In this document: positions 3,263 to 11,829 of the stretch, piece by piece
Numbering within the stretch: position 1 is the stretch's first letter
Layout: every line of letters begins with the position of its first letter
Source: a virus
Lineage: Duplodnaviria > Heunggongvirae > Uroviricota > Caudoviricetes
IMG/VR virus record: IMGVR_UViG_2778261687_000008
Direction: 5' to 3' (one strand)
DNA: 15,253 nt
The notes under the pieces: model-generated
Database searches by the model: none
What the model saw: only the letters and a program-made list of their open reading frames with translations
What the model was told of the DNA's origin: nothing
Translations under genes and position numbers: made by a program

Positions 3263-4345
3263 ATGAAAAAATTAACAGTGGCAATTTCTGCTGTAGCTGC
3301 ATCAGTACTGATGGCGATGTCTGCTCAGGCAGCTGAAATTTATAATAAAGACAGTAACAAGCTGGATCTGTACGGGAAAGTTAATGCTAAGCACTACTTC
3401 TCCTCTAATGATGCAGATGATGGTGATACTACTTATGCCCGTCTTGGCTTCAAAGGTGAAACCCAAATCAACGATCAGCTGACTGGTTTCGGTCAGTGGG
3501 AATATGAATTCAAAGGCAACCGCGCTGAATCTCAAGGTTCCTCCAAAGACAAAACCCGTCTTGCATTTGCAGGCCTGAAATTCGGTGACTACGGCTCAAT
3601 CGATTACGGCCGTAACTACGGTGTAGCATACGACATCGGTGCGTGGACTGACGTTCTGCCAGAATTCGGTGGCGATACCTGGACCCAAACAGATGTGTTC
3701 ATGACTGGTCGTACCACTGGTGTTGCAACCTATCGTAACAACGACTTCTTTGGTCTGGTTGATGGTCTGAACTTTGCTGCTCAGTATCAGGGTAAAAATG
3801 ACCGCACTGACGTAACTGAAGCTAATGGTGATGGTTTCGGTTTCTCCACTACTTATGAGTATGAAGGATTCGGTGTAGGTGCAACCTATGCTAAATCTGA
3901 CCGCACTAATAATCAGGTTATCTACGGTAACAACAGCCTGAATGCATCTGGTCAAAATGCTGAAGTATGGGCAGCTGGTCTGAAATATGATGCGAACAAC
4001 ATCTATCTGGCTACCACCTATTCTGAAACCCAGAACATGACTGTTTTTGGTAATAACCATATTGCCAACAAAGCACAAAACTTCGAAGTAGTTGCACAAT
4101 ATCAGTTCGACTTCGGTCTGCGTCCGTCCGTTGCTTACCTGCAATCTAAAGGAAAAGACTTGGGTGCGTGGGGTGATCAGGACCTGGTTGAATATATTGA
4201 TGTAGGTGCAACCTATTACTTCAACAAAAATATGTCCACTTTTGTTGATTACAAAATCAACCTGATTGATAAGAGCGATTTCACGAAAGCATCTGGCGTT
4301 GCTACCGATGATATCGTTGCTGTAGGTATGGTTTACCAGTTCTAA
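3263..4345 (+). CDS. nmpC: General bacterial porin, OmpC/OmpF/PhoE family (NmpC/Lc-type prophage porin), apparently intact
   Basis: 360 aa. Signal peptide ending AQA|AEIYNK, aromatic/glycine-rich beta-barrel pattern, C-terminal ...VYQF. AAAGGG Shine-Dalgarno upstream. Opposite strand to the flanking Q and lysis genes. Confidence 0.9.
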
Positions 4346-5140: not shown

Positions 5141-5501
5141 CATTCATTCCCCATTTCGGTGATGGTCAGTTCCAGCCTCCCACCTTTGGTAACAGGCATC
5201 TTCACAACGCGGTAATCAACGACCTGAGCATCATCCAGCCAGAAACCTGCTTTGGTGAGTGCGTCAAAAGCGGCTTTTTGCAGATTATCCAGGTCACGGC
5301 GACGGCGATCCGGCATGTGGCACTCAATACGGATTTTCACTGGCATAGCCAGGCCGATATCCAGCATTGCGTTTTTAATGATTCGGGTGACGTTATCGCG
5401 GTATGCCTGCCCTTCTGCGCTGATGTGTGTGCGCCCGCGATTATGGCGGTAATAGCGGTTATTGCTCGGAGGCCAGGGAATGTGATGCTGTAGGTATTCA
5501 C
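5140..5501 (-). CDS. rusA: RusA Holliday-junction resolvase; N-terminus is frame-disrupted (possible pseudogene or non-canonical start)
   Basis: The core ...[24 protein letters not shown]...[28 protein letters not shown]... is in one frame back to a stop at 5521-5523, with no ATG/GTG/TTG before the Met at 5365-5367. A GTG-NTYSIT N-terminus-like segment (5481-5501) sits in a different frame. Confidence 0.6.
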
Positions 5502-6832: not shown

Positions 6833-7849
6833 ATGACTCAAACTCCACTATTACTTGCAATCATATTTTTATTGGTTGTTCTTGTTCTATATATAGCTGC
6901 AATCAAACGCATCAAAAAAATACAATTAGAATTAAGTGATAGCAATCAAAAAAATGAAGAATACAAATCTCGCTTTGCAGATTATTTTAATGTGGAAGAG
7001 GAATGTAAGAAGCTTATTGAGAAAACAGAGCAAGAATGCTCCATTATAAAAGAAGAGTCCCAAAAAGTAAAAGAAAATGCCAATAATGAACTAACAAACA
7101 CCATTGAAAAAATGGATGGTATCAATAAACAAATCCAAGAACTAAGAAGAACTTATAAAGAGAAGAAAGAAATATATGATAAGCTAGTAAAGCAAATTTC
7201 TATTTATTCAGAAGATGTTGAACTAGCCGAACTAGGATTTTACGAACCTCATTTTAATTTTGAAGATTCAGAGCAATTTAAAAACAAAATAAAATCCATC
7301 AGGGATGAACAGAAATTAATGCTGCGGGATAAAACCCACTCTGGTGCAGTATATTGCACAACCCAATGGACTGTTGAAGGCTCTCGAGCAGAGGGTAAAA
7401 AAATGACAGACAGAAATATTAGGCTAACTACTAGAGCATTTAATAATGAATGTGATGCTGCAATTAGTAATTGCACGTGGAAAAATATCACTAAAATGGA
7501 AGAACGCATCACAAAGGCATTTGAGGACATAAATAAACTAAACGAGCAAAATCACATATATATAAATACTAAATACCTTAATAAAAAACTTGAGGAGTTG
7601 TGGCTTACCCATGAATATCGTGAGCAAAAACAGAAAGAAAAAGAAGAACAGGCAGAAATAAGGGCACAAATGAGAGAGGAGGAGCGTGCACAACGAGAAA
7701 TAGAAAAGGCCATGCAAGACGCAGAGGCAGAAGAGCGCCGTTATAAAAAAGCAATTGAAGCTGCAAGAAAGGAAATGGAAAAAGTTACTGGTGACATGAA
7801 GCAGCGCCTCGAAAATCGCATTGCCGAACTAGAACAGAGTTTGTCGTAG
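6833..7849 (+). CDS. Membrane-anchored coiled-coil protein (DUF4041-like N-terminal module; cargo gene A)
   Basis: 338 aa. Single N-terminal TM helix (LLLAIIFLLVVLVLYIAAI), then long E/K/Q-rich heptad-like coiled-coil segments and a highly charged C-terminus. AAGGA Shine-Dalgarno 10 nt upstream. AT-rich codon usage. Confidence 0.7.
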   Translation: MTQTPLLLAIIFLLVVLVLYIAAIKRIKKIQLELSDSNQKNEEYKSRFADYFNVEEECKKLIEKTEQECSIIKEESQKVKENANNELTNTIEKMDGINKQIQELRRTYKEKKEIYDKLVKQISIYSEDVELAELGFYEPHFNFEDSEQFKNKIKSIRDEQKLMLRDKTHSGAVYCTTQWTVEGSRAEGKKMTDRNIRLTTRAFNNECDAAISNCTWKNITKMEERITKAFEDINKLNEQNHIYINTKYLNKKLEELWLTHEYREQKQKEKEEQAEIRAQMREEERAQREIEKAMQDAEAEERRYKKAIEAARKEMEKVTGDMKQRLENRIAELEQSLS

Positions 7850-7879
7850 GCTGAATCAAAGCATCAAAGAGCATTATCC

Positions 7880-8335
7880 ATGGCACAACAAACCAAACAA
7901 GGTCATGTTTATATTATTTCGAACATAGGTTCTTTTGGGGAGAATGTTTATAAAATAGGCATGACACGACGTCTTGATCCACAAGACCGTGTAAATGAGC
8001 TTGGTGATGCATCTGTTCCTTTTATTTTTGATGTGCATGCCATGATTTATTCGGAGGACGCTCCATCATTAGAAAAAAAACTACATGATGTCTTCGATAA
8101 AAAGAGAGTCAATCTTGTAAATCGTAGAAAAGAGTTTTTCTATGTTACTCTGGATGAGATCAAAGAAGCTGTTAAAAAACACTCTGATTCAGAAATTGAA
8201 TTTATTGAGACAGCAGTCGCAAAAGACTTTAATGAGTCATTGGCTATTCGTAATCATGAAAATAAAAAAAGCGACAACAGCAACTCATCAATCATACTTG
8301 AGCGAAAAATCCCAGAGTTTGCAGATGTAATTTAA
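7880..8335 (+). CDS. T5orf172 / GIY-YIG-like nuclease-domain protein (cargo gene B); in frame with gene A across a single TAG
   Basis: 151 aa. Motifs GHVYIISN...VYKIGMTRR...R..EL...PF fit the GIY-YIG / T5orf172 (MUG113) pattern. Weak Shine-Dalgarno. Same reading frame as gene A with 10 sense codons between. Confidence 0.65.
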   Translation: MAQQTKQGHVYIISNIGSFGENVYKIGMTRRLDPQDRVNELGDASVPFIFDVHAMIYSEDAPSLEKKLHDVFDKKRVNLVNRRKEFFYVTLDEIKEAVKKHSDSEIEFIETAVAKDFNESLAIRNHENKKSDNSNSSIILERKIPEFADVI

Positions 8336-8604
8336 TTAATTTGTAGTTAAAACAAAACAGGCATCGTTGATACTTTTTGGTCAGCGATGCTTACATCCTC
8401 CTCTCGGAAAACGTCGATTACTTGCAACTTTATTTTTAATTTCCAGCAGCAAGTACTAATGCACAACCTCCATTACATACTGATTTGAACATCACGAATC
8501 CCGCCTCTAGCTTAAACTACAAAGTATTACCAGAATCAATCTTATTCATAACTAAACTCCACAGACCAATTGAACATATGAATCCATATTGATATGCTAC
8601 ATCA

Positions 8605-8633
8605 CAATGTGTTAACCATTAGATAACACATTG
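8605..8633. promoter_or_regulatory. Perfect 10-bp inverted repeat with 9-bp spacer upstream of the HD-domain gene (candidate operator)
   Basis: caatgtgtta-N9-taacacattg, 62-90 nt upstream of the ATG at 8695. Its right arm overlaps a TTGAAA -35-like hexamer (8631-8636). Confidence 0.3.
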
Positions 8634-8694
8634 AAACTATAAACATCATTACTATTTAAATTTCGTATTATAACTACAGCAAAAGGAAAGCCTC

Positions 8695-10242
8695 ATGACA
8701 AACAAAAACAAACTTGAGAACTTTGAAGACTTACTTCTGGGGAAGTTTTTAGATCCCATACATGGAGTGATTCGAATAACTAAGCTAGAAAAAAAGATAA
8801 TTGACCATCCTTTATTCCAACGACTACGAGATATCAGGCAGAACACGTTTCTATATAAAGTATTTCCTTCTGCAATGCACTCTCGCTTTGAACACTCTGT
8901 CGGTGTAATGCATTTATCGTATGAAATATTAAAAAATATTGATTTAAATGCACTAATTTACAATCGAAAAAATATGGGCATTGATCTATATTTAGATATA
9001 AAAAAAATGCCTTCAAGTCTTATACAGGAGTTACGTATTGCAGCATTGTTACACGATGTTGGGCATGGCCCACTTGCCCACCAATTCGATAGTTTTGCAA
9101 TATCCGTAAAAGATTTCAAAGAAAAATGCAAAACTGAAGGAAATAAACAATACGATAAGATTATATCTTTAAGTGATAATGACAAGTTAACCCACGAACA
9201 AGTATCATGTATTTTTATTAAAGAAATTATTGAAGAATTAAAAAATGAAGCCCAAGATAAATCAAATGACGACGATGTCTATAAAGAAAACATAGCGGCT
9301 ATTAATCCAGAAAGCATTATAAAAATTGTTGATAAAAGATATGATTTTAAAAATAACATTGAGGGAGTAAATGTATATCCTTTATTAGGTTCAATCATAT
9401 CATCTTCACCTATAGATGCGGACAGAATGGACTACCTACTTAGAGATAGCTACTTCTCCGGCGTTAAATATGGGATTTATGATTATGGACGATTATTAAT
9501 GTCATTTATTCCTGTGAAAGTTGAAAATAGTGTTTACCTGGCATATAAAGAAAGTGGTATGGATTCAATACTAGAATTTGCCAATGCAAGAAGTGGGCTT
9601 TATAGTCAAGTTTATTTTCATAAGACCAATCGTGCACTATCTGCGATGCTTAACAAAGCGTGTTCTAGAAAAAAAACTGATGATGTTGTCTATTTAAAAT
9701 CTAAAAACACTCTCATTGAGTCCATCAAACACTTTTATCGTGAAAACCCAGACAAAACGTTTTTAGAAAACACTCTTAAAAACACATTAGATAAAAATTC
9801 TCAAGCTATAATTCAAGATATTGTTGATAGAAATGTTTGGAAAAAAATATATGAAAAAAAACACACGTTTTCTAATGTTAACATTTCCGACAACAGATAC
9901 AAAGAATATAAACAAAATATATCTAAGAAAATCAACAAAATCATTGAGGATAATTTAAAAGGAGATGAATGGGTTCTTGATTTTCAGATTGAAGATAACT
10001 TTAAAGATATCGATACAAGTCAAGCTAAAATAATAAAAAAAGAAACAGGCGGCAAGTATACAATAAATGATTTATGTAAGTATAACGATGTACTTCAACC
10101 CTATCACTATGTTAAATTCTTTATTCGAGTTTTTGTTTCTAAGACAACTCAACTCCAAAACACCGAAGAAATTAATGTGTTAATAAAAAAAATAGATAAA
10201 TGTCTTAATGATGAGATTGATCATATTAAAAAAGACAAGTAG
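8695..10242 (+). CDS. HD-domain dNTP triphosphohydrolase, SAMHD1/dGTPase-like (cargo gene C)
   Basis: 515 aa. Motifs DPIHG (aa 20-24), RFEHSVGV (H67), LLHDVGHGPLAH (H120-D121) and DADRMDYLLRD (aa 241-251) align with the SAMHD1-type catalytic core as I recall it. AAGGAAAG Shine-Dalgarno. Lys-rich, divergent C-terminal third. Confidence 0.85.
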   Translation: MTNKNKLENFEDLLLGKFLDPIHGVIRITKLEKKIIDHPLFQRLRDIRQNTFLYKVFPSAMHSRFEHSVGVMHLSYEILKNIDLNALIYNRKNMGIDLYLDIKKMPSSLIQELRIAALLHDVGHGPLAHQFDSFAISVKDFKEKCKTEGNKQYDKIISLSDNDKLTHEQVSCIFIKEIIEELKNEAQDKSNDDDVYKENIAAINPESIIKIVDKRYDFKNNIEGVNVYPLLGSIISSSPIDADRMDYLLRDSYFSGVKYGIYDYGRLLMSFIPVKVENSVYLAYKESGMDSILEFANARSGLYSQVYFHKTNRALSAMLNKACSRKKTDDVVYLKSKNTLIESIKHFYRENPDKTFLENTLKNTLDKNSQAIIQDIVDRNVWKKIYEKKHTFSNVNISDNRYKEYKQNISKKINKIIEDNLKGDEWVLDFQIEDNFKDIDTSQAKIIKKETGGKYTINDLCKYNDVLQPYHYVKFFIRVFVSKTTQLQNTEEINVLIKKIDKCLNDEIDHIKKDK

Positions 10243-10283
10243 AGCCCCCCTGATGTTTTAAAAAACATCTTAACTATAAACAC

Positions 10284-10318
10284 AACGCCATTAGTTACTC
10301 TCAGTAACTAGTGGCGTT
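10284..10318 (+). terminator. Long hairpin downstream of the HD-domain gene (candidate terminator or processing/stability element)
   Basis: aacgccattagttact-ctc-agtaactagtggcgtt: 16-bp stem (one G-U wobble) with a 3-nt loop, 42 nt after the stop. No U-tract. Confidence 0.35.
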
Positions 10319-10612
10319 CATGTCTAATGATTGACCCGCAGTATTATCTGGTGCTTGTCAATCAGATTTATTCATTGTTTAATACTACCTCAGCATCCTG
10401 TTATACGCTACACAACCATTATTACTCATCCTTTGAGTTACATTTAATATCTAAAATATTTTTGTGTTAATCAATGTGTGGATATATTCCCTACTAATTC
10501 ACTAATTCATACAGCACCAAGCTAGAAACATTGTTATAGTTCCCCGCACAAAGCAAACCATTAAATTTGATTGGATGTTTTCGAGATAACCATCAAATCA
10601 AGTAATAACTAA

Positions 10613-10894
10613 TCACCCATATACCGCCAACACCCGCTTCATCGCGGCACTCTGGCGACACTCCTTAAAAATCAGGTTCGTGCTCACCTTTCCTTCCCGT
10701 TCTTCTCTGGTAGCGAACCGGTAATACACCGTTCGCCAGACCTTACCATCAATGACCAGGATTCCTGCCCGCGCCATTTTAGCTGCTGCCTGATTTATGC
10801 AGGTTACTGTCACACCTGTTGCCGCAGCAACGTCCTGCGCACAGAAGCTCTTGTGCGTCTCCAGATAATGAATAATTACCTCTTTGCCCGTCAT
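10613..10894 (-). CDS. ren: Ren-like protein (lambda ren homologue)
   Basis: 93 aa, near-identical to my recollection of lambda Ren. ATGA overlap with the P stop. Confidence 0.8.
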   Translation of the reverse strand: MTGKEVIIHYLETHKSFCAQDVAAATGVTVTCINQAAAKMARAGILVIDGKVWRTVYYRFATREEREGKVSTNLIFKECRQSAAMKRVLAVYG

Positions 10895-11592
10895 ACAGTT
10901 GCTCCTTTCAGTCCGAACTTCGCTTTGATTTCTGCGATCTTCGCCAGAGCCTGTGCACGATTTAGAGGTCTACCGCCCATGACAGGAAGTTGTTTTACTG
11001 GTTCAGGTATCGCCTCACCACGGTTAATTCGCGCGGTCATACAAGTCAGTTCATCGGCAGCCTTGCGCCGTAATTCCGCATCAGTAAGCGCATTGGCCCG
11101 CATGTTCTGGTACAGGTTGGTAACCAGCCAGTAGTGCGCGTTTGATTTCCACGGATAAGACTCTGCATCCGGATACAGGCCACGCTTCCGACAATACTCA
11201 TAGACCATATCAACCAGCTCGCTGACGTTTGGCAGCCCGGCGTTAACGGATGCTTCTTCCCGGCACCAGGCAACAAACTGCCCGGGTGATGGCAGGAATG
11301 GTCGATTCTGCCGACGGGCTACGCGCATTCCTGCGTTAACCTGTTCCATTGTGGTGATCCCGTTTTCCCGGAAAGCCAGCACCCACTGGCGGCGGATTTC
11401 GTTCAGTTCGTTCTGGTCCCGGTTAGCCAGGCTCGCCGGGAAAGTTGCCAGTAACTGGCTGAACACACCATTGATGATCTGCGCTACCTGTTGTACCTGC
11501 GGCTTTTCGTCGTACTGTTCCGGCATGTTGTTGGCGATCCGGCGCATCTGCTCACGGTCAAAGTTAACCATCTGTGCGGCGATGTTTTTCAT
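10891..11592 (-). CDS. P: Replication protein P (DnaB helicase loader), lambda P-like
   Basis: 233 aa, near-identical to lambda P as recalled. Start overlaps the O-fragment stop (ATGA). Confidence 0.9.
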   Translation of the reverse strand: MKNIAAQMVNFDREQMRRIANNMPEQYDEKPQVQQVAQIINGVFSQLLATFPASLANRDQNELNEIRRQWVLAFRENGITTMEQVNAGMRVARRQNRPFLPSPGQFVAWCREEASVNAGLPNVSELVDMVYEYCRKRGLYPDAESYPWKSNAHYWLVTNLYQNMRANALTDAELRRKAADELTCMTARINRGEAIPEPVKQLPVMGGRPLNRAQALAKIAEIKAKFGLKGATV

Positions 11593-11786
11593 AGCTCCAC
11601 CCCGTAAATCCAGTCAGTGTTCGTCAGGTCGAGTTTTGGTTTGCCGGCTGTCACGCCAGCCTGTTGCTTGTTTCGGTTGATTTCGAGCTGGGTCCACTTG
11701 TCGCGGAGTTTGGCCGGACTCAGCACGTTACCGGACCAGAAGTTGTCCTGGCATGCCCAGCGGAACAGTACACACATGTCGCGGTG
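11589..11786 (-). pseudogene. O: C-terminal fragment of replication initiator O (N-terminal origin-binding part absent)
   Basis: The frame ends ...FWSGNVLSPAKLRDKWTQLEINRNKQQAGVTAGKPKLDLTNTDWIYGVEL, matching the lambda O C-terminus. Upstream residues of the ORF are antisense to exo and not O-like. The upper boundary is approximate. Confidence 0.7.
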
Positions 11787-11787
11787 G

Positions 11788-11829
11788 TTCCTGAAACAGA
11801 AAGCCACTGAGCAGAAGGTGGCAGCATGA
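11788..11829 (+). pseudogene. bet: 3' remnant of bet (Red-beta) fused at a deletion junction
   Basis: Last about 13 codons encode [13 protein letters not shown] with the stop overlapping the exo ATG (ATGA), matching the lambda Bet C-terminus as recalled. Nothing Bet-like lies further upstream. Confidence 0.5.

Follow-up and report, generated by a model that had tools for sequence, protein, structure and literature searches.

The gene on the plus strand at positions 8695..10242 of the window (the whole stretch of 15,253 nucleotides analyzed here), which starts with ATG and encodes 515 amino acids plus a stop codon (hereinafter the HD gene and the HD protein), is predicted to code for a metal-dependent deoxynucleoside-triphosphate triphosphohydrolase (dNTPase) of the SAMHD1 type, carried by a self-contained cassette of approximately 2.2 kb with a GC content of about 30%. 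On comparative grounds and by analogy with known anti-phage enzymes, we consider that this gene, on balance, probably protects lysogens by phage-triggered depletion of dNTPs.

Fold and clade of the HD protein

The initial annotation had pointed out four ordered N-terminal motifs, DPIHG, VFPSAMHSRFEHSVGV, LLHDVGHGPLAHQFD and DADRMDYLLRDSYFSGVKYG, and had related them to the catalytic core of SAMHD1. These motifs are indeed present, at residues 20-24, 56-71, 118-132 and 241-260, respectively, and the relationship is borne out by matches far past chance in a phmmer search of the PDB sequences, namely to 2hek (E 5e-30), EF1143 (E 8e-27) and human SAMHD1 (approximately 1e-25, query residues 19-430), as well as by a Pfam search that retrieved the HD domain (1.2e-6) and otherwise just a weak match to HD_assoc_2. 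The best homology is not to a cyclic-nucleotide phosphodiesterase or a (p)ppGpp hydrolase, the unrelated HD subfamilies that had been named as alternatives; folds of the GppA and phosphodiesterase types are remote.

As judged from sequence, the HD protein is a stand-alone member of the EF1143/SAMHD1 clade. It is 22-27% identical to the SAMHD1 proteins of human, C. elegans and fungi (PDB 4BZB, 7UJN, 6PWY, 9MR6) and approximately 27% identical to EF1143 of Enterococcus faecalis (PDB 2O6I, 3IRH, 4LRL), 2HEK from Aquifex and 2Q14 (BT4208). Among these bacterial relatives, EF1143 is a characterized tetrameric, dGTP-activated dNTPase (PMC3190883), whereas 2HEK and 2Q14 are uncharacterized proteins with chains approximately 100-150 residues shorter than the HD protein; a defense role or a mobile context has been reported for none of the three. 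Unlike SAMHD1, the HD protein has neither a SAM domain (only 16 residues precede the core, and Pfam detects no domain there) nor a counterpart of the C-terminal regulatory tail with T592, and its gene resides on mobile elements of bacteria. The family is distinct and small, with about 8 full-length clusters at 50% identity that are retrieved at E 1e-60 or better from 1.84 billion representatives. The PHROG family that includes the HD gene, phrog_35128, is currently labelled 'unknown function'.

The C-terminal 180 residues are rich in lysine, as originally noted (16.1% compared to 9.9% in the remainder of the protein), but the suggestion that they form a motif-less regulatory or sensor module does not hold. 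The profile alignment to SAMHD1 extends up to approximately residue 560, and the whole-chain fold, including the C-terminal lobe, is shared with SAMHD1/EF1143-type enzymes in Foldseek alignments of approximately 510 columns. The beta-sheet/helix lobe that ends the chain (residues 425-515; 9967..10239, plus strand) is homologous to the C-terminal lobe of SAMHD1, with FIRVFVSK aligned to LIRVYCKK of SAMHD1, and the AF2 monomer model includes confident strands at residues 426-481; the profile alignment, these strands and the fold match together rule out a new sensor domain.

The precedent of phage defense that the initial annotation had invoked stands for bacterial HD-domain dNTPases in general, dNTP depletion by such enzymes being presented as an established defense (Tal et al., 2022; PMC13519002), but not for the clade of the HD protein, because the reported cases belong to the Dgt-type sister clade, whose TIGR01353 and PADLOC dGTPase models the HD protein fails. 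The score against NCBIfam dGTP_triPase is 21.8 bits, compared to the cut-off of 152.35, and the PADLOC matches are weak (dGTPase, E 0.0018 over 95 residues; Cas3 HD, E 0.021), so assignment to a known defense family was rejected. The HD family profile matches no Dgt-type chain in the PDB at E 1e-3 or better, and the closest fold relatives are not Dgt, TT1383, CloA or VC1979. Because the known defenders are of the Dgt type, the defense role predicted for the HD protein is an extrapolation to another clade.

The Dgt-type defenders, which comprise Sp-dGTPase and its relatives (Tal et al., 2022), CloA of the Clover system (PDB 9P8S) and V. cholerae VC1979 (PDB 7LWZ; it may be the protein denoted 'Vdg' in PMC13519002), nevertheless resemble the HD protein in the HD superfamily membership, the predicted reaction (dNTP to deoxynucleoside and PPPi), the logic of starving phage DNA synthesis, the single- or near-single-gene organization and the location in defense hotspots. 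The published anti-phage evidence that we found covers the dGTPases of Tal et al., CloA and Vdg, all of the Dgt type and only remotely related to SAMHD1; the homology of these enzymes to SAMHD1 has been described as 'too limited' to judge ancestry (Tal et al., 2022). In contrast, the HD protein is alignable with human SAMHD1 along the entire catalytic and regulatory chain and is missed by the PADLOC and NCBIfam dGTPase models. A review of January 2026 still refers to SAMHD1-like bacterial defense proteins as 'unidentified' (PMC13276650), our literature search found no paper on the SAMHD1-type clade in phage defense, and the DefensePredictor, domain-centric discovery and P2/P4 hotspot papers do not mention HD, SAMHD1 or dGTPase.

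Catalytic and allosteric residues and their evolution

The first part of the conserved core (residues 17-134; 8743..9096, plus strand), when mapped onto human SAMHD1, contains the allosteric-site-1 motif (K17, D37, Q42, R45), followed by the substrate residues Q49 and R64, the metal ligand H67, the HD motif H120-D121, and H124, H129 and D132; the counterparts in SAMHD1 are K116, D137, Q142, R145, Q149, R164, H167, H206, D207, H210, H215 and D218. Among 53 homologs, all these residues are invariant apart from two: D37, which is replaced by N in 13 sequences and by G in 2 (D in 36), and D132, which is replaced by E in 2 (D in 51). A variable helical insert (residues 135-227; 9097..9375, plus strand), in which the invariant catalytic histidine H167 is embedded (THEQ; SAMHD1 H233), separates this part from the second half of the catalytic core (residues 228-324; 9376..9666, plus strand), with the metal ligand D243, R244, Y247, D251, R299 and Y307 as well as D263, R266, K285, H309 and K310, which resemble allosteric site 2. 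The metal-binding tetrad H67, H120, D121 and D243 (H167, H206, D207 and D311 in SAMHD1) is invariant in 53/53 homologs, and so are the catalytic and substrate residues R64, H124, H129, H167, Y247, D251, R299 and Y307 (SAMHD1 R164, H210, H215, H233, Y315, D319, R366 and Y374), whereas D132 (D218) is retained in 51 of the 53.

The substrate pocket differs from that of human SAMHD1 at several positions (L150 to N, which is invariant in the family; K312 to R; H370 to Y/F; Q375 to F/Y). These substitutions, the fact that the structures matched most closely, 2hek and BT4208, are of uncharacterized proteins, and the statement in PMC7854603 that the allosteric sites of SAMHD1 bind nucleic acids could all be accommodated by a different chemistry on the same fold, such as a nuclease or nucleic acid-binding activity or hydrolysis of ribonucleotides or (p)ppGpp. 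Such an activity seems very improbable in view of the invariance of all metal ligands and of the eight catalytic and substrate residues listed above, the proven dNTPase activity of the equally distant EF1143, and the remoteness of the GppA-type and phosphodiesterase folds.

The residues of allosteric site 1, which is guanine-specific (SAMHD1 K116, D137, Q142, R145 and, from the neighboring chain, R451 and K455), are present at the level of sequence: K17, Q42, R45 and R379 are invariant, and at the position of K383, 23 homologs have K and 19 have S. Allosteric site 2 is only partly retained. The equivalents of V156, F157, R333, H376 and K377 are invariant, D330 is kept in 48/53 and R352 is replaced by K, but the HD protein differs from SAMHD1 by K354 to S, N358 to S, R372 to Q and the lack of a counterpart of N119; K523 of SAMHD1 corresponds to an invariant Lys in the HD family, K437 or K449 depending on the alignment used. 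In non-mammalian SAMHD1s, allosteric site 2 is generally weakly conserved. Conservation of the allosteric residues does not imply gating because a fungal SAMHD1 with the same allosteric site 1 is active as a monomer and is stimulated by GTP only up to 2.4-fold (PMC12042053).

The HD gene is subject to purifying selection, with dN/dS of 0.12-0.27 in all pairs of six homologs, but the constraint is unevenly distributed along the gene when the two E. coli alleles, those of the window and of strain SCU-111, are compared. The core (residues 1-82 and 228-324) shows 30 synonymous and 1 non-synonymous differences (dN/dS 0.007), compared to dN/dS of 0.28 for residues 83-227, of which the insert at 135-227 has a mean family conservation of 0.44. 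In the fast-evolving helical region (residues 325-424; 9667..9966, plus strand), where R379, the equivalent of SAMHD1 R451 of allosteric site 1, is invariant, there are 15 synonymous and 44 non-synonymous differences (dN/dS 0.61) at a dS equal to that of the core. A recombination mosaic was ruled out as the source of this allelic variation because dS is uniform across the regions of the gene (0.32-0.40). It can be speculated that phage triggers or inhibitors make contact with the surface formed by residues 325-424.

Taken together, the allosteric residues and the fast-evolving region allow a bolder reading, which we put forward tentatively: the HD protein might be a single-gene, self-regulating immune dNTPase that senses the nucleotide pool via its allosteric sites (guanine nucleotide and dNTP) and fires upon the phage-driven rise in dNTPs, residues 325-424 might be engaged in an arms race with phage inhibitors comparable to that between primate SAMHD1 and Vpx, and SAMHD1, together with its regulation, might have its counterpart in prokaryotic immunity. 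If so, SAMHD1 and its regulation would join the animal antiviral factors that can be aligned directly with a prokaryotic counterpart, and the gap left by the Dgt-type dGTPases with respect to SAMHD1 ancestry would be filled.

The prophage cassette and its candidate expression signals

The initial annotation was right in placing the HD gene in a prophage: the window matches, at 99.9% identity, a lambdoid prophage that is integrated beside an icd fragment in E. coli B-1109. The carrier is a defective, lambda-like E. coli prophage that has lost 4.4 kb and has acquired nonsense and frameshift mutations; the HD gene is nonetheless intact and identical to that of H1. The cassette spans 8395..10616 on the plus strand (2,222 bp), as defined by blastn break-points relative to phage PhiR26_1, which carries SNIPE but not the cassette. 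SNIPE lies just upstream of the cassette, and the lytic pR operon runs in the opposite direction. The neighboring SNIPE (PD-lambda-1) gene (TM-DUF4041-GIY-YIG; 6833..8335, plus strand; identified from the annotation of H1 and PhiR26_1) is a pseudogene here, with an in-frame nonsense codon at 7847-7849 that results from a C to T change at 7847 relative to H1. On the right, the boundary falls approximately 5 nt inside the 3' end of a ren-like exclusion gene (10613..10894, minus strand; phrog_142, E 5e-40), and the blastn homology to PhiR26_1 resumes at 10617. This gene is followed by replication gene P (10891..11592, minus strand; H1 annotation), a marker of the early-right operon, whose transcription is antisense to that of the HD gene. 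In E. coli, the cassette occupies a variable slot of lambdoid prophages, with ren/P on one side and the nin genes on the other. A search of the cassette ends for direct or inverted repeats, as traces of an insertion mechanism, gave just short AT-rich chance matches.

The cassette appears to bring its own conserved 5' region, ribosome-binding site and 3' stem-loop. The spacer between SNIPE and the HD gene is 359 nt long, and within its conserved part a candidate promoter can be read at 8570..8598, plus strand (-35 TTGAAC, 8570-8575; 17-nt spacer; -10 TATGCT, 8593-8598), with an internal palindrome, ATATG-AATC-CATAT (8576-8589). This block is retained in E. coli, Enterobacter, Proteus and Serratia although the surroundings are unrelated. 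We infer a promoter here as a conservation-based guess because its score, 8/12, lies below the threshold of the consensus scan; that scan, for sigma-70 promoters and intrinsic terminators, gave no excess over shuffled sequence and placed no site in the 5' spacer. The ribosome-binding site AAAGGAAAG (8681..8689, plus strand) ends 5 nt before the ATG, and its AAGGAA is invariant in six homologous loci. A 15-bp stem-loop without a T-run (10284..10318, plus strand), located 42 nt past the stop codon, belongs to a 3' flank of at least 250 nt that is conserved in the cross-genus alignment, and RNAalifold shows compensatory changes at 3 stem pairs.

Several other assignments for the flanks were examined and dismissed. 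The conserved flanks contain no Rfam match at E 1 or better; the downstream ORFs of 47 and 38 aa are not frame-conserved across genera, the alignment containing indels; the arms of the 3' hairpin were judged by eye not to fit the integron core-site consensus of an attC-like site; and an upstream NrdR-box-like operator shows only a loose resemblance to the NrdR-box consensus, so that no claim is made.

In these respects the cassette resembles the defense morons of temperate coliphages (SNIPE/PD-lambda-1, lambda rexAB and sieB, P2 old and tin), which are likewise AT-rich, have their own expression signals, lie between conserved phage modules in slots that vary among related prophages, and are transcribed either in opposition to the lytic operons or without regard to them; the type of effector differs from that of the HD protein.

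Under the favored scenario of phage-triggered dNTP depletion, transcription of the HD gene in the lysogen would start at a promoter of its own. The protein is predicted to oligomerize via the C-terminal lobe, probably into a tetramer, with a guanine nucleotide possibly bound in the SAMHD1-like allosteric site 1, for which the residues are in place, and would convert dNTPs to deoxynucleosides and triphosphate at the H..HD..D metal center, the residues of which are likewise present. The genomic context suggests that the dNTP pool would be capped or would collapse once a superinfecting phage replicates its DNA, so that the lysogen population is protected. More speculatively, upon induction of the resident prophage, convergent transcription from pR may silence the HD gene.

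Genomic distribution and alternative roles

The HD gene is rare, being present in 21 of 5,426 E. coli genomes. In all 21 of these complete genomes, it occupies the ren/P-nin slot, with SNIPE directly upstream on the same strand, and this strict association is what a single two-gene defense system would predict, in which the HD protein is needed for SNIPE or regulates it. Several observations make such a system highly unlikely: SNIPE is an anti-phage nuclease validated as a single-gene defense that acts alone (PMC13190303); 110 of the 131 genomes with SNIPE lack the HD gene; the two genes are set apart by a spacer that includes the conserved 5' region of the HD gene; SNIPE does not adjoin the homologs in Yersinia, Proteus, Serratia, Enterobacter, Klebsiella and Vibrio; and in the window SNIPE is disrupted, whereas the HD gene is intact.

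Outside E. coli, a P2-like prophage of Yersinia carries a homolog with 68% identity as an antisense moron between genes S and V. A homolog with 76% identity is found in Proteus, flanked by icd fragments and next to CBASS, and an integron of V. cholerae contains another, in a cassette surrounded by toxin-antitoxin cassettes. Every relative with at least 68% identity resides in a locus that is mobile or variable, namely in one of two prophage types, in an icd-fragment island or in a slot beside HigBA. Among the genes immediately next to the homologs, in a set of 35 loci, are Lamassu, Zorya, ThsB, DarG, HerA, AbiH, a dGTPase and PDC candidates, the PADLOC results being family counts for the loci taken together. 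The GC content of the gene is up to 0.31 below that of the flanks, so it is compositionally foreign nearly everywhere. The recurrent setting of the family is defense islands or prophage defense hotspots on mobile DNA, but this signal is not universal.

Indeed, K. pneumoniae carries a homolog with 44% identity as a fixed gene of the chromosome, found in thousands of isolates (approximately 3,530 member sequences), and many of the remoter homologs are located among housekeeping genes, for example adjoining GroEL in Chryseobacterium. Because of these two features, a non-defense role in dNTP homeostasis is possible: the HD gene could be a moron with dNTPase activity that trims the pools in slow growth or stationary phase (fidelity, cell cycle, salvage), as proposed for chromosomal Dgt. 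The intact catalytic machinery fits this role, a Dgt is described in PMC11071499 as promoting cell-cycle progression in Caulobacter, and Tal et al. weighed housekeeping roles for more distant dGTPase homologs. We nevertheless regard it as unlikely for the HD gene, considering the confinement of close relatives to mobile and variable loci, the rarity in E. coli, the foreign composition and the adjacent validated defense gene.

The occurrence of the gene as a moron in two unrelated temperate-phage families could also reflect a service to the prophage itself, either tuning of dNTPs for stability of lysogeny or timing of induction, or counter-defense against nucleotide immune signals or modified nucleotides. 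Variable slots of phages also house anti-defense genes, and the HD superfamily includes signal-degrading phosphodiesterases. To this role we assign a low probability.

If the HD gene does defend its host, a detectable family would be added to defense annotation, a tractable bacterial model of SAMHD1 allostery would become available, and the finding would bear on the prokaryotic inheritance of SAMHD1 immunity; if it does not, it would illustrate how temperate phages spread a moron of dNTP metabolism.

No conserved partner gene was detected among the 35 or more homologous loci. In particular, unlike the Clover system, in which CloA is paired with CloB, the HD gene has no adjacent CloB-type nucleotidyltransferase in the window, where its neighbors are SNIPE and ren, and none is conserved in the other loci. 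As a separate observation, a single V. cholerae integron locus carries an NTP_transf_6 cassette upstream of the HD homolog.

SAMHD1-type features of the HD protein

The HD gene (8695-10242, + strand, ATG start) encodes 515 residues. GC drops locally to about 30% at the gene, from about 50% on either side. The initial annotation had proposed a SAMHD1-like dNTP triphosphohydrolase on the basis of four motifs, all of which were found in the claimed order (residues 20-24, 56-71, 118-132 and 241-260). Among the HD and dGTPase models, Pfam yielded only the generic HD domain (1.2e-6) and an HD_assoc_2 match under threshold, and the NCBIfam dGTP_triPase model remained below its cut-off. The best matches among PDB sequences are not to another HD subfamily but to Aquifex 2HEK (5e-30), Enterococcus faecalis EF1143 (8e-27) and about 25 SAMHD1 sequences of human, mouse, fungal and nematode origin (about 1e-25). 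With the single sequence as the query, the SAMHD1 alignment covers residues 19-430; the profile of 53 homologues extends it to about residue 560, with FIRVFVSK of the query opposite LIRVYCKK of SAMHD1. The last 180 residues are indeed Lys-rich (16.1% vs 9.9% elsewhere in the protein), but the suggested sensor region turns out to be the normal C-terminal lobe of the SAMHD1 fold, which in SAMHD1 contributes to the tetramer and the allosteric pockets.

For residue mapping, human SAMHD1 116-560 was rebuilt from HMMER printouts and then added to the alignment of the 53 homologues; the rebuilt fragment matched the numbering of all 29 landmark residues drawn from the literature on SAMHD1 structure. 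The metal ligands H167, H206, D207 and D311 correspond to H67, H120, D121 and D243, which all 53 homologues share; this bears out the proposed match to the catalytic core. Likewise invariant are the catalytic and substrate residues R164, H210, H215, H233, Y315, D319, R366 and Y374 (R64, H124, H129, H167, Y247, D251, R299 and Y307), and D218 (D132) is kept in 51 of 53. The pocket differs from that of SAMHD1 at K312 (R in the family), H370 (Y or F) and L150 (an invariant N). In allosteric site 1, K116, Q142, R145 and R451 (K17, Q42, R45 and R379) are invariant and D137 (D37) is D in 36 homologues and N in 13. In allosteric site 2, the equivalents of V156, F157, R333, H376 and K377 are invariant, K523 is represented by an invariant Lys, 48 of the 53 homologues retain D330 and R352 is replaced by K; K354, N358 and R372 are substituted and N119 is without a counterpart.

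Given this residue map, the traits of a SAMHD1-type dNTPase that has a regulatory site for guanine nucleotides are complete as far as they are visible in sequence, with a SAMHD1-type fold and with the active site and the guanine-type allosteric site intact, and the protein is very probably such an enzyme. That the same fold performs a different chemistry is highly unlikely: the substitutions in the pocket would leave room for it, and the metal ligands and the eight further catalytic and substrate residues are those of SAMHD1. Proteins of the SAMHD1 clade in bacteria, and the dNTPase activity of one of them, EF1143, have been known since 2011 (PMC3190883). Strict gating does not follow from the conserved residues because in fungal SAMHD1, where allosteric site 1 is the same, the monomer is active and GTP raises activity at most 2.4-fold (PMC12042053).

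A decaying prophage and the SNIPE neighbour

The description of the gene as prophage cargo holds: a lambdoid prophage integrated beside a truncated icd gene in Escherichia coli B-1109 and 730V1 matches the window at 99.9% identity. From left to right, it carries bor, Rz/R/S (- strand), a porin gene, Q, ylcG, rusA, ybcO, ninE and ybcN (all - strand), the DUF4041 and HD genes (+ strand), ren, P and O (- strand), and exo, xis and int. Compared with B-1109, 4.4 kb including the rest of O, cII/YdaT, cro, cI, kil, gam and most of bet are missing, so that at the junction (11785-11789) the truncated O is joined to the bet/exo region; rusA has lost 1 nt at 5479, and C to T at 7847 puts an in-frame stop, Q339* (codon 7847-7849), into the DUF4041 gene. 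Given these lesions, the prophage is defective and decaying while the HD gene stays intact and identical to the B-1109 copy. A different, larger prophage deletion in strain 2 HS-C likewise spares both genes. The OmpC/NmpC-like porin gene (3263-4345) is flanked by Q and the lysis genes, where Stx phages carry stx; with the porin gene and bor (1194-1487), the fragment carries at least four genes of the lysogenic-conversion type.

The DUF4041 gene (6833-8335, + strand) is SNIPE, also known as PD-lambda-1, a single-gene defence consisting of a membrane-anchored GIY-YIG nuclease that cuts phage DNA during injection (PMC13190303). In the window, Q339* leaves a 338-aa product with the TM and DUF4041 regions, and a separate ORF (7880-8335) holds the whole nuclease domain; anchor-less SNIPE could not be cloned under normal expression and required an inducible promoter (PMC13190303). 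Among 5,426 complete E. coli genomes, SNIPE is present in 131 and the HD gene in 21, in all 21 directly downstream of SNIPE (five of these contexts were read in detail). This arrangement would suit an obligate SNIPE-HD pair, which is less probable still than a different chemistry: most SNIPE copies in these genomes stand without the HD gene. The functional temperate phage PhiR26_1 has the DUF4041 gene (annotated PD-lambda-1) and lacks the HD gene.

Mobility and selection of the HD cassette

Relative to PhiR26_1, the 2,222 bp of window 8395-10616 are inserted, with the end of the DUF4041 module on one side and the 3' end of ren on the other. Both SNIPE and the HD gene run against the pR early-right operon (P, ren, nin, Q). 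The roughly 130 nt that precede the HD start codon are conserved across E. coli, Enterobacter, Proteus and Serratia, and the DNA further out is unrelated. This block contains an AAGGAA ribosome-binding site and a candidate promoter, TTGAAC-17-TATGCT (8570-8598; below the consensus-scan threshold), enclosing a perfect palindrome, ATATG-AATC-CATAT, that may be an operator for some regulator. In the same genera at least 250 nt of non-coding sequence 3' of the gene (10243 to about 10500) are conserved, including a 15-bp stem-loop (10284-10318), 42 nt past the stop codon, with compensatory substitutions across the four genera and no T-run after it, which may mark the mRNA 3' end, stabilise the transcript or act as a regulatory RNA. 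Neither an Rfam family nor a conserved small ORF was found in these flanks, nor terminal repeats at the cassette ends. Given the conservation of both flanks amid unrelated DNA, the mobile unit comprises the HD gene with its own flanks.

The word-indexed search returned at least 7,875 proteins, few of them close relatives, and an exhaustive search of 1.84 billion representatives gave 14,411 matches at E <=1e-3, only 308 of these at <=1e-30. Homologues with 68-77% identity come from Proteus, Serratia, Enterobacter, Raoultella, Klebsiella sp. and Yersinia, those with about 41-50% from Vibrio, Photobacterium, Aeromonas, Shewanella, Pseudoalteromonas, Dickeya and K. pneumoniae, and a genome scan added Flavobacteriia and some Bacilli (33-41%). 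The Yersinia enterocolitica gene (68%) is a moron of a P2-like prophage, where it lies antisense in the slot that separates tail gene S from baseplate gene V (L096, 8102-11030); this slot corresponds to the orf30 moron position of P2; a recent P2/P4 hotspot survey does not mention orf30. The Proteus mirabilis gene (76%) stands between two short icd fragments (L093, 1-11017), next to a CBASS operon (CD-NTase and Cap15) and mSLOG/DUF4326/DUF488/DuOB genes; its position suggests serial integrations at icd, the attachment gene shared with the prophage of the window. The gene is a singleton downstream of proBA in Serratia (76%), adjoins HigBA and an Hcp/Tlde1 pair in Enterobacter (75%), occupies a superintegron cassette amid toxin-antitoxin cassettes in V. 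cholerae, and in K. pneumoniae (44%, about 3,530 member sequences) has a fixed chromosomal site by a T6SS cluster. Matches labelled 'Klebsiella phage' proved to be this K. pneumoniae host flank.

The survey of two genes on each side at 35 full-length loci (132 proteins) detected, with PADLOC, LmuA/LmuB, ZorA/ZorB, ThsB, DarG, HerA, a canonical dGTPase and PDC-S45/46/49/66 and, with Pfam, AbiH, TIR and KAP NTPases, along with housekeeping neighbours such as GroEL at three Chryseobacterium loci. No recurrent partner gene was found among these loci, and non-coding gaps of more than 90 nt separate the HD homologue from both neighbours in nearly all of them. The homologues have 26-42% GC everywhere, up to 0.31 below their flanks (Aeromonas, Dickeya, Enterobacter, Serratia, Shewanella), which marks an accessory gene that moves horizontally, not a housekeeping gene passed on by vertical descent.

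Two E. coli alleles and the genes of four other genera were compared by the Nei-Gojobori method, and dN/dS is 0.12-0.27 in all pairs. Between the E. coli alleles, protein identity is 84% and the 82 differences are clustered: residues 1-82 and 228-324 (the catalytic/allosteric core) show 30 synonymous vs 1 non-synonymous change (dN/dS 0.007), and residues 325-424 show 15 vs 44 (0.61). Given the similar dS in the two regions (0.32 and 0.34), a recombination mosaic was rejected. Thus, the chemistry is very strongly constrained and one helical surface evolves fast, a pattern that is typical, although not proof, of immune proteins.

Proposed role and relation to Dgt-type dGTPases

The gene is a stand-alone cassette under purifying selection that occupies prophage and integron slots and adjoins defence genes, and we lean towards the view that it is an anti-phage defence gene. 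The lysogen would make the enzyme, which would form an oligomer and, by hydrolysing dNTPs, block DNA replication of superinfecting phage; this logic of nucleotide starvation is established for Dgt-type dGTPases and SAMHD1 and is here proposed for the HD protein. Given the allosteric sites, activity may rise with (d)GTP and the dNTP pool, tying activation to the dNTP surge made by many lytic phages; Clover, from a different clade, is a precedent for dNTP (dTTP) sensing. Since the gene is antisense to the lytic operon in both the lambdoid and the P2-like prophage, it might, speculatively, be silenced while its own prophage replicates. A moron for dNTP homeostasis without a defence role is unlikely; it would fit the intact catalytic core, and the adjacency to a validated defence gene speaks for defence. 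A prophage-serving or counter-defence role, with which residence in two prophage types would agree, is distinctly unlikely.

The initial annotation had further noted that bacterial homologues of this family have been reported to protect against phage by dNTP depletion. This has to be amended, as the published anti-phage dNTPases that we found are all Dgt-type and the HD protein lies outside that family: Dgt-type membership was rejected given 21.8 bits vs a cut-off of 152 (NCBIfam dGTP_triPase) and E 0.0018 over 95 residues only (PADLOC dGTPase), and the family-profile search of PDB returned no Dgt-type chain at E <=1e-3. The Dgt-type clade includes Clover CloA, with its H126/E129 dyad and partner NTase, and Vdg, an octameric dGTPase-like protein of V. 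cholerae (PMC13519002); hexameric HD dNTPases are "often mistakenly referred to as SAMHD1-like" (PMC12042053). In the literature, we found no paper that validates a defence role for the SAMHD1 clade or catalogues it under defence; in PHROGs the family carries the label 'unknown function', and SAMHD1-like bacterial defence proteins are 'unidentified' according to a review of January 2026 (PMC13276650). Accordingly, nucleotide-depletion defence by an HD dNTPase is known, and the candidate novelty is the SAMHD1 clade with predicted SAMHD1-type regulation. A specialist would find this idea unsurprising; the candidate is still clean, cheap and testable, and could tie SAMHD1 immunity directly to prokaryotes.

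In V. cholerae, the cassette directly upstream of the HD cassette (L010, 2677-3213) encodes a PF06042 (NTP_transf_6) nucleotidyltransferase, recalling the dNTPase and NTase of Clover, although it was seen only once and adjacent integron cassettes are as a rule independent. At one of the surveyed loci (L013-L048), the canonical PADLOC dGTPase (E 2.9e-135) is among the two genes on either side of a SAMHD1-type homologue; the two dNTPase clades can thus share one island. Seven proteins from the exhaustive search (P0191, P0193, P0214, P0222, P0239, P0254 and P0257; 1,100-1,650 aa) carry a related HD core mid-chain or terminally and may be the NLR-, TIR- or other fusions described in PMC13519002.
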